A stretch of DNA of 64,000 nucleotides from Escherichia coli (GTDB lineage Bacteria > Pseudomonadota > Gammaproteobacteria > Enterobacterales > Enterobacteriaceae), in assembly GCF_050320075.1 (NCBI RefSeq), contig NZ_CP190018.1. One strand, 5' to 3'. Within the stretch, counting starts at the first letter, position 1, and every line of letters begins with the position of its first letter. A model generated the notes under the pieces. That model was not told where the DNA came from. It made no database searches and saw only the letters and a program-made list of their open reading frames with translations. The position numbers were made by a program, and so were the translations under genes. Below, piece by piece: positions 46,459 to 49,806 of this stretch.

Positions 46459-47106
<648 letters not shown>

Positions 47107-47147
47107 ATCCATCGTTGATGGTGCAGAACTTTAGTACACGATAAAAG

Positions 47148-47178
47148 CGGCTTCCTGACAGGAGGCCGTTTTGTTTTG
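47148..47178 (+). terminator. Intrinsic terminator after dps
   Basis: CGGCTTCC-TGACA-GGAGGCCG stem (one G.U) followed by TTTTGTTTTG. Confidence 0.7.
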
Positions 47179-47323
47179 TAGCCCGCCTCAACGCACTTAT
47201 TTAGTGCATCCATCTGCTATCCCCAGCTGGTTAAGTAAATTTTTTGTATCCACATCATCACACAATCGTTACATAAAGATTGTTTTTTCATCAGGTTTTA
47301 CGCTAAATAATCACTGTGTTGAG

Positions 47324-47366
47324 TGCACAATTTTAGCGCACCAGTTTGGTGCCCCAGAATGGTGCA
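47324..47366 (+). promoter_or_regulatory. NtrC (NRI) binding-site cluster upstream of glnH
   Basis: TGCACAATTTTAGCGCA and GCACCAGTTTGGTGCC (consensus TGCACCA-N3-TGGTGCA) plus a further GGTGCA half-site. Confidence 0.6.
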
Positions 47367-47439
47367 TCTTCAGGGTATTGCCCTATAAATCGTGCATCAC
47401 GTTTTTGCCGCATCTCGAAAAATCAATGAGTTGCAAAAC

Positions 47440-47455
47440 TGGCACGATTTTTTCA
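47440..47455 (+). promoter_or_regulatory. Candidate sigma-54 promoter glnHp2 (non-consensus -12)
   Basis: TGGCACGATTTTTTCA: -24 GG present, -12 region reads TC instead of GC; ~55 nt upstream of glnH ATG. Confidence 0.5.
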
Positions 47456-47494
47456 TATATGTGAATGTCACGCAGGGGATCGTCCCGTGGATAG

Positions 47495-48256
<762 letters not shown>

Positions 48257-48289
48257 TAACGCTACGCCTGTAAAGCGCACTGGCAGTTC

Positions 48290-48310
48290 CCTCTCCCCTC
48301 TGGGGAGAGG
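48290..48310 (+). other. Intercistronic hairpin between glnH and glnP
   Basis: CCTCTCCCC-TCT-GGGGAGAGG 9-bp stem; no U-tract. Confidence 0.45.
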
Positions 48311-48394
48311 ATTAGGGTGAGGGGCGCAAACCCGCTCCGGGGCCATTAATTACCCTGAATTTGATTATTTACACCACGGTAACAGGAACAACAT

Positions 48395-49054
48395 ATGCAG
48401 TTTGACTGGAGTGCCATCTGGCCTGCCATTCCGCTTCTGATTGAAGGTGCCAAAATGACCCTGTGGATTTCGGTCCTCGGTTTGGCTGGCGGTCTGGTGA
48501 TCGGATTGCTGGCAGGTTTTGCACGCACCTTCGGTGGTTGGATAGCCAACCACGTCGCGCTGGTCTTTATTGAAGTGATCCGCGGCACACCTATCGTCGT
48601 CCAGGTGATGTTTATTTATTTCGCCCTGCCGATGGCGTTTAACGACTTACGCATCGACCCGTTTACTGCGGCGGTGGTCACCATCATGATCAACTCCGGC
48701 GCGTACATTGCGGAAATCACGCGTGGTGCGGTGCTGTCTATTCACAAAGGTTTTCGTGAAGCAGGACTGGCGCTCGGTCTTTCACGTTGGGAAACCATTC
48801 GCTACGTCATTTTACCGCTGGCACTGCGTCGTATGCTGCCGCCGCTGGGTAACCAGTGGATCATCAGTATAAAAGATACCTCGCTGTTTATTGTTATCGG
48901 CGTGGCGGAACTGACCCGTCAGGGGCAAGAAATTATTGCCGGTAACTTCCGCGCCCTTGAGATCTGGAGCGCCGTGGCGGTGTTCTATCTGATTATTACC
49001 CTGGTGCTGAGCTTTATTCTGCGTCGTCTGGAAAGAAGGATGAAAATCCTGTGA
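48395..49054 (+). CDS. glnP: Glutamine ABC transporter permease GlnP
   Basis: 219-aa ORF, ABC permease. Confidence 0.9.
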
Positions 49055-49773
49055 TTGAATTTAAAAACGTCTCCAAGCATTTTGGTCCAACCCAGGTGCT
49101 GCACAATATCGATTTGAACATTGCTCAGGGCGAAGTCGTGGTGATTATCGGGCCGTCCGGTTCCGGTAAATCGACCCTGCTGCGCTGCATCAACAAACTG
49201 GAAGAAATCACTTCCGGCGATCTGATTGTCGATGGCCTGAAGGTTAACGATCCGAAAGTTGACGAGCGCCTGATTCGCCAGGAAGCAGGTATGGTGTTCC
49301 AGCAGTTTTACCTCTTCCCGCATCTGACGGCGCTGGAAAACGTCATGTTTGGTCCGCTACGCGTGCGTGGCGCGAACAAAGAAGAGGCGGAAAAACTGGC
49401 GCGTGAGCTGCTGGCGAAAGTCGGCCTGGCAGAACGCGCTCACCACTACCCTTCCGAGCTTTCTGGTGGTCAGCAACAGCGTGTGGCGATTGCCCGTGCG
49501 CTGGCGGTAAAACCGAAAATGATGCTGTTCGATGAACCGACTTCCGCTCTTGACCCGGAACTGCGCCATGAAGTGCTGAAGGTTATGCAGGACCTGGCTG
49601 AAGAAGGGATGACGATGGTGATCGTGACCCACGAAATCGGTTTTGCCGAGAAAGTAGCTTCGCGCCTGATCTTTATCGACAAAGGCCGGATTGCGGAAGA
49701 TGGCGATCCGCAGGTGTTAATCAAGAACCCACCGAGCCAGCGCTTGCAGGAATTTTTGCAGCACGTCTCTTAA
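49051..49773 (+). CDS. glnQ: Glutamine ABC transporter ATPase GlnQ
   Basis: 240-aa ORF; Walker [10 protein letters not shown] and signature LSGGQQQR. Confidence 0.9.
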
Positions 49774-49780
49774 CTTCTCA

Positions 49781-49806
49781 GCCTCCCTTTCCCCCGAAAG
49801 GGAGGC
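49781..49806 (+). terminator. Hairpin after glnQ
   Basis: GCCTCCCTTT-CCCCCG-AAAGGGAGGC 10-bp stem; weak U-tract. Confidence 0.5.

Follow-up and report, generated by a model that had tools for sequence, protein, structure and literature searches.

A BoxC repeat forms the stem-loop between glnH and glnP of Escherichia coli, just upstream of a mapped RNA 3' end

The glnHPQ operon of Escherichia coli carries a stable hairpin between its first two genes, and we asked what this hairpin is and what it might do to the glnHPQ mRNA. We analyzed a stretch of 64,000 nucleotides of E. coli DNA (hereafter the window; positions are counted from its first nucleotide), in which the genes read rhtA-dps-glnH-glnP-glnQ-ybiO along the + strand, the same order as in MG1655, where glnH is b0811. 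The glnH gene (47510 to 48256, + strand), the first of the operon, encodes the periplasmic glutamine-binding protein and was assigned from its open reading frame, the MG1655 gene order, and a 100% match to the GlnH cluster; glnP (48395 to 49054, + strand) and glnQ (49051 to 49773, + strand) were assigned from their open reading frames and gene order. The glnH-glnP spacer thus covers positions 48257 to 48394, that is, 138 nt.

The stem-loop and its repeat family

An earlier note on this DNA had described a GC-rich hairpin 34 nt past the glnH stop and lacking a U-tract, and both the sequence and its folding confirmed that description. The hairpin (48290 to 48310, + strand) consists of CCTCTCCCC, the loop TCT, and GGGGAGAGG, which form a perfect 9-bp stem closed by a 3-nt loop; its first base is the 34th nucleotide past the glnH stop, and the sequence directly 3' of it, ATTAGGGTGAGGGG, contains no U-tract. 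On its own, the hairpin folded at -18.3 kcal/mol (z = -2.85), and it was the terminal structure of the 58-nt glnH 3' tail (z = -3.09). The full 138-nt spacer was only marginally structured (z = -1.97), and the part of the spacer 3' of the hairpin showed no significant structure (z = -0.54). The exact palindrome occurs once in the 64-kb window, against 0.01 occurrences expected, and a count of perfect GC-rich hairpins with stems of 9 bp or more gave 10 entries in the window, from 6 distinct sites, where 100 dinucleotide shuffles of the window gave 0.6 ± 1.0. A stem-disrupting counterpart of the arm CCTCTCCCC was drawn up as a design, with the sequence CCTGAGCCC.

Routine scans returned little. 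The terminator scan did not call the glnH-glnP hairpin, the promoter scan found no sigma-70-like internal promoter in the spacer, and the Rfam scan of positions 47000 to 49500 (E ≤ 10) yielded no relevant family; the best overlapping match, whalefall-1, scored 15 bits, below the gathering score of 37, and was taken as chance. One minimum free energy fold paired GUUCC, on the 5' side of the hairpin, with GGAAC of the glnP Shine-Dalgarno (SD) region over 5 bp; the MG1655 fold lacked this pairing, which we also treated as chance.

Judged by its sequence, the hairpin is the stem-loop of the dispersed repeat known as BoxC, which has been published as a 56-bp repeat with 32 copies in E. coli. The same family goes under the names PIT, the potential intrastrand triplex element of Hoyne and Maher; TMECO, the name given by Holder et al. 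(2015), who tabulated 23 copies; and HPG1/HPG2, the G-quadruplex/hairpin motif of Kaplan et al. (2016), also with 23 copies tabulated. The BoxC/PIT/TMECO motif is tripartite and reads CCCTC(T/G)CCC(C), a loop of 3 to 4 nt, (G)GGGAGAGGG, a 3-nt spacer (TTA or CCG), and GGGTGAGGG. The corresponding blocks in the window are CCCTCTCCCC-TCT-GGGGAGAGGA-TTA-GGGTGAGGGG, so that blocks 1 and 2 make up the hairpin and block 3, GGGTGAGGGG, lies at 48315 to 48324 (+ strand). They share with the family the C-rich block, the 3-nt loop, GGGAGAGG, TTA, and GGGTGAGGGG, and depart from it by one substitution in block 2, which is GGGGAGAGGA here and GGGGAGAGGG elsewhere, the last base being A instead of G.

To place the boundaries of the element, we aligned the spacer with 12 MG1655 regions containing 19 BoxC copies, taken from the coordinates of the published tables. 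The spacer holds a degenerate type-A copy with its G-rich strand in the mRNA sense, at approximately 48271 to 48331 (+ strand). It fits the type-A consensus from the flank AAAGCGCAC..GCAGT (around 48271) through block 3 (48324) and then runs past block 3 into CGCAAAC, which it shares with the lldD copy; the flanks of the ~56-bp unit are therefore type-A upstream and lldD-like downstream. Whereas most type-A copies have a G.A mismatch in the stem, the stem of the glnH-glnP copy is perfect. A further stretch (48332 to 48358, + strand), in the 25 to 30 nt after the repeat, showed moderate similarity to paired BoxC loci (sstT, gcvP, entC, and hrpB), where it matches the linker together with the start (TTACCCT) of the inverted partner. 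Tentatively, two BoxC units may once have stood in the spacer as a pair, the second of which was later truncated.

The earlier note treated the hairpin as a feature specific to the operon, and this view has to be given up, as the hairpin is one copy of a dispersed family. When the whole spacer was used as a megablast query, the orthologous locus alone was recovered, in 5420 of the 5426 complete E. coli genomes and at 95 to 100% identity; the family became visible only in a blastn search with the short, 62-nt core, in which 5425/5426 E. coli genomes had matches, at a median of 15 places per genome and a maximum of 30. The copy studied here is intergenic, between two coding sequences, as befits a dispersed, multicopy, intergenic repeat. 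Neither a repeat search nor a pattern search allowing 3 mismatches found a second copy within the 64-kb window. Neither of the published MG1655 catalogues (Holder et al. 2015; Kaplan et al. 2016; 23 copies each) lists the glnH-glnP copy, and the single block 2 substitution accounts both for this omission and for the failure of the copy to match the strict G-quadruplex (G4) pattern of HPG1 (four G tracts of at least 3, short loops, GGGAGAGGGTTAGGGTGAGGG), as its second tract is only GG (GGGGAGAGGATTAGGG). The element is thus a previously uncatalogued, slightly degenerate copy of a well-known repeat family, and its kind is ordinary and already known.

The repeat also leaves a trace in the list of open reading frames. 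On the minus strand, positions 47846 to 48346 contain a 166-aa open reading frame antisense to glnH, the N terminus of which (MAPERVCAPHPNPLPRGERELP...) is translated BoxC repeat. This frame is almost certainly spurious, and BoxC-derived peptides of this type could seed false gene calls.

The spacer in E. coli and its relatives

We then looked into the variation of the spacer. Across six E. coli sequences, a sample too small to weigh much, the stem was invariant, the loop was TCT, TAT, or GCC (TCT in the window and TAT in MG1655, a K-12 strain), and block 3 varied, with a G-to-A change and, in Sakai, a 1-nt deletion. Orthologous spacers from nine other enterobacterial lineages were recovered via GlnH homologues and folded. 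All nine contained a GC hairpin starting ~19 to 42 nt past the glnH stop, each time with a sequence different from that of E. coli. E. marmotae, Salmonella, C. sedlakii, and Enterobacter had a REP-like hairpin ending in CCGGGCCTAC, and the Enterobacter hairpin is followed by a T-run; Lelliottia and one further relative had the hairpin GGGGCGACCTTTCGCCCC, and those of Klebsiella and Serratia were lineage specific. From these comparisons, BoxC at this site is specific to E. coli, and a strong hairpin after glnH is general. The presence of a hairpin in each lineage fits selection for structure; a bias in the insertion of repeats could also produce the same distribution.

The other element of the spacer lies close to glnP. 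In the Enterobacteriaceae examined, ACGGTAACAGGAA or a close variant stands just before the glnP start, and the remaining spacer is unrelated in sequence. The corresponding block in the window, CACCACGGTAACAGGAAC (48372 to 48389, + strand), which comprises the glnP SD region, was present in most of the spacers compared; Klebsiella has a partly altered version, and in Serratia another sequence takes its place. GlnZ, a small RNA (sRNA) of nitrogen starvation, is known to repress glnP and glnQ and to pair immediately 5' of the glnP SD; from the published description of the pairing position, the CACCACGGTAACAGGAAC block probably holds the GlnZ target.

An RNA 3' end four nucleotides past the stem

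The idea that the stem makes a transcript boundary after glnH, for which Term-seq had been proposed as a check, was borne out by published data. Adams et al. (2021, Supplementary file 1) applied Term-seq to MG1655 grown in LB to an OD of 0.4 and 2.0 and in M63, and they reported an RNA 3' end at MG1655 847200(-), of the class "orphan," with average counts of 30,332 and 130,459 on two condition sheets; the 847200 coordinate prefix is present three times in the file. Their sequence column gives 50 nt upstream, the end nucleotide (position 51 of 61), and 10 nt downstream, a register that we verified on thrL. Read in this way, the table places the end 4 nt past the stem (+4), on the final A of GGGGAGAGGAUUA. 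Since the spacers of MG1655 and the window align without indels, the end transfers to position 48314 (+ strand), the data being from K-12 with the loop TAT and the window having TCT. Block 3 therefore begins just past the mapped end, which leaves G tracts 3 and 4 outside a glnH-only RNA. The 847200 site is not in the Rho-termination table of the same study.

Two further observations concern the ends of the operon. In the window, a perfect 11-bp GC hairpin, GCCTCCCTTTC-CCCC-GAAAGGGAGGC, lies 8 nt past the glnQ stop (49781 to 49806) and is also without a U-tract. We found no curated 3' end after glnQ in the data of Adams et al. (8456xx to 8461xx, 8464xx, and 8470xx to 8471xx), and so the glnQ-distal hairpin has no curated end at MG1655 8456xx to 8457xx, whereas the glnH-proximal end is curated. 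Upstream, the same table lists an RNA 3' end at MG1655 848057(-), which corresponds approximately to window position 47457 and precedes the glnH start by 53 nt; one condition gave 47,250 reads for it. Located in the glnH promoter/5' untranslated region, this end could reflect premature termination or leader processing.

We then examined the other BoxC copies of MG1655 in this table. Three of them had curated ends at +4/+5. One end, 3959467(-), belongs to the ppiC-side copy, which is in the G-rich orientation; the other two, 3781065(+) and 164636(+), follow the lldD and hrpB copies, respectively, which are in the C-rich orientation. Fourteen other positions predicted at BoxC copies had no curated 3' end. 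Occurring in both orientations, the ends at +4/+5 point to the palindromic stem, rather than the G-rich tail, as the determinant. For comparison, the intrinsic terminators that we checked had ends at +7 (dps) and +8 (the minus-strand 20763 terminator and sgrS), and U-less REP-type hairpins had ends at +4 to +7. Among the MG1655 BoxC copies checked, curated ends were found at 4/7 with a perfect stem versus 0/11 with a G.A mismatch (one-sided Fisher's exact test, ~0.011, computed by hand). Predicted stability differs by just 1 to 2 kcal/mol between the two types of stem, so that stability is no clear explanation for which copies bear ends; expression level, a likely confounder, may lie behind the difference instead of stem perfection.

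A probable exonuclease barrier and alternative explanations

We think it probable, although far from certain, that the BoxC hairpin in the glnHPQ mRNA blocks exonucleases working from the 3' end, so that a stable glnH-only RNA is left and glnH is uncoupled from glnPQ. In such a mechanism, the 9-bp G+C stem would block PNPase and RNase II moving in the 3'-to-5' direction; glnHPQ transcripts cut or ending downstream, either in the AU-rich unstructured spacer from around 48340 or in glnPQ, would be trimmed back to +4; the trimming would leave a stable glnH-only RNA; and glnH would be uncoupled from glnPQ, alongside the known repression by the GlnZ sRNA at the glnP ribosome-binding site. We infer exonuclease trimming as the source of the end at 48314, and likewise any gain in the glnH:glnPQ ratio.

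There are precedents for this mechanism. Dar and Sorek (2018, NAR) described U-less stable stem-loops that set precise steady-state 3' ends in E. coli, with PNPase and RNase II trimming back to them, and work from the same group and earlier has shown that such structures stabilize the substrate-binding-protein cistron of ABC operons, malEFG being an example. The glnH hairpin has the corresponding traits, a stem-loop of -18.3 kcal/mol and a steady-state RNA end at +4 in K-12, that is, a stable stem-loop with no U-tract and a precise end immediately downstream. It differs from the protected ends of Dar and Sorek in being intra-operonic, the mapped end lying 81 nt before the next start codon. The REP/BIME elements of malE-malF and hisJ-hisQ offer a closer likeness, as they too are repeats that provide an ABC operon with a U-less GC hairpin, placed after the binding-protein gene, that defines a 3' end, and in E. 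marmotae, Salmonella, Citrobacter, and Enterobacter it is REP-like elements that fill the very same spacer. The consensus palindrome of REP is of the type GCCGGATG...CCGGCCTAC, and it is not in the E. coli glnH-glnP spacer. BoxC is an unrelated sequence family for which, to our knowledge, no mobilizing RAYT-type transposase is known; a stabilization of glnH would be by analogy with the REP cases. A literature search for direct work on the glnH-glnP stem-loop found nothing. In the study of Dar and Sorek (2018, PLoS Genet), glnQ-glnP-glnH belonged to the analyzed operon set and was not among the differentially decaying operons; the size of any effect on glnH versus glnPQ could be small.

The earlier note had offered two mechanisms for the hairpin, a 3' stabilizer and a partial terminator, and it is the stabilizer that fits the data better. 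If the hairpin were a partial terminator, RNA polymerase would stop at or just after it, through a U-less intrinsic, factor-assisted, or Rho-dependent event, and fewer polymerases would reach glnPQ. A discrete and abundant 3' end right past a stable stem is what such a terminator would give, the GC-rich hairpin past a stop codon resembles an intrinsic terminator, Kaplan et al. (2016) speculated that intra-operon copies act as terminators, and some relatives (Enterobacter and Lelliottia) have a T-run after the hairpin. The details of the site speak against it. Intrinsic terminators have a U-rich tract within 0 to 2 nt of the stem and an end 7 to 9 nt past it, whereas the tail here is AUUAGGGUGAGGGG and the end is at +4, not at the +7 to +8 of the intrinsic terminators that we checked. 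Nor does Rho seem a good candidate, as the site is missing from the Rho-termination table and the first 14 nt past the stem abound in G, whereas Rho prefers sites rich in C and poor in G. The mapped end is just 81 nt short of the glnP start, the terminator scan gave no call, and Holder et al. (2015) summarize Hoyne and Maher as having found PIT elements without promoter or terminator activity and without effect on RNA polymerase. The +4 geometry, the missing U-tract, the missing Rho call, and the inactivity of PIT elements as terminators lead us to favor the exonuclease barrier and to hold termination at this site improbable.

Two other explanations do without any function of the hairpin in the mRNA. 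The repeat might be a neutral passenger, a selfish or accidental BoxC insertion, the 3' end being the by-product that any stable hairpin in an mRNA would give, with no selected effect on glnHPQ. The family is indeed dispersed beside unrelated genes, and no trend in orientation or function has been reported for it (Kaplan et al. 2016; Holder et al. 2015), E. marmotae, the closest relative examined, has a REP-like element in its place, and glnHPQ was not flagged for differential decay; such repeats accumulate in spacers anyway, and the hairpins of all lineages may reflect insertion bias and not selection. Yet the copy has been kept in 5420/5426 E. coli genomes at 95 to 100% identity, although TMECO loci are reported to be unusually unstable, and the stem is invariant where the loop varies (in the six E. 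coli sequences). Some hairpin is also present in every lineage, even in the 78-nt spacer of Lelliottia, and the substrate-binding-protein genes of ABC operons are typically stabilized in this manner, which together make a mere passenger unlikely in our opinion.

The element might instead act as DNA, as an intrastrand triplex or a G-quadruplex/hairpin switch that affects replication, recombination, or local genome instability and not the mRNA. Triplex formation in vitro, for canonical copies, and elevated rearrangement at TMECO loci have been reported (Holder et al. 2015), circular dichroism gave evidence for G4 and hairpin forms (Kaplan et al. 2016), and block 3 is conserved nearly to the letter across phyla, which the RNA hairpin does not account for, as block 3 lies outside the stable RNA. 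In the glnH-glnP copy, however, the degenerate block 2 (GGGGAGAGGA) fails the strict pattern of four G3 tracts and adds a triplet mismatch; this copy is in neither published list, in vivo DMS footprinting gave no support for a stable triplex (Holder et al. 2015), and the locus is stable across E. coli. We consider a role of this copy at the DNA level very improbable.

Wider distribution and meaning of the repeat

We scanned representative genomes with the pattern GGGAGAGGNNNNGGGTGAGGG and obtained at least 120 stretches among the matches listed from 12 non-enterobacterial genomes. The genomes among the matches listed include Gallionellaceae, Comamonadaceae, Pseudomonas, Rhodoplanes, Rhizobiaceae, Phenylobacterium, a low-GC gammaproteobacterial metagenome-assembled genome (MAG), Aquimarina, Mucilaginibacter, and a Phycisphaerales MAG. 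Among them, the complementary arm CCCTCTCCC, which the pattern did not demand, was nearly always present, and the flanks were taxon specific. The core was multicopy, among the matches listed, in Planctomycetota, Bacteroidota, and alpha-, beta-, and gammaproteobacteria, and the Phycisphaerales MAG showed, again among the matches listed, dozens of copies that have ~100 nt of conserved flank in common, as in a MITE-like unit. The breadth of the motif was already known, since Holder et al. (2015) reported it in more than 260 genomes.

The ends at other BoxC copies raise the possibility that the whole BoxC/PIT/TMECO class acts as orientation-independent barriers that fix mRNA 3' ends 4 to 5 nt past the stem, as REP does, and that the glnH-glnP copy was retained in E. 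coli in replacement of the REP-like hairpin of its relatives. The occurrence of curated ends at perfect-stem copies and at none of the mismatched ones is a hint in this direction, and we regard this extension as speculative and, on balance, doubtful. If it were true, a repeat family reported to lack promoter and terminator activity would gain its first function in vivo, and BoxC, which has so far been discussed only as a DNA triplex or G-quadruplex, would have a simple consequence at the RNA level.

For the glnHPQ operon itself, if the hairpin stabilizes the glnH mRNA, the spacer would contain two layers of discoordinate control, a repeat-derived 3' protector and the GlnZ site, and both layers together would explain more GlnH than GlnPQ. 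The current view of operon decay would be unchanged, with one locus and one repeat family filled in. Different repeat families, here BoxC and REP, would then be interchangeable as suppliers of the same operon punctuation.
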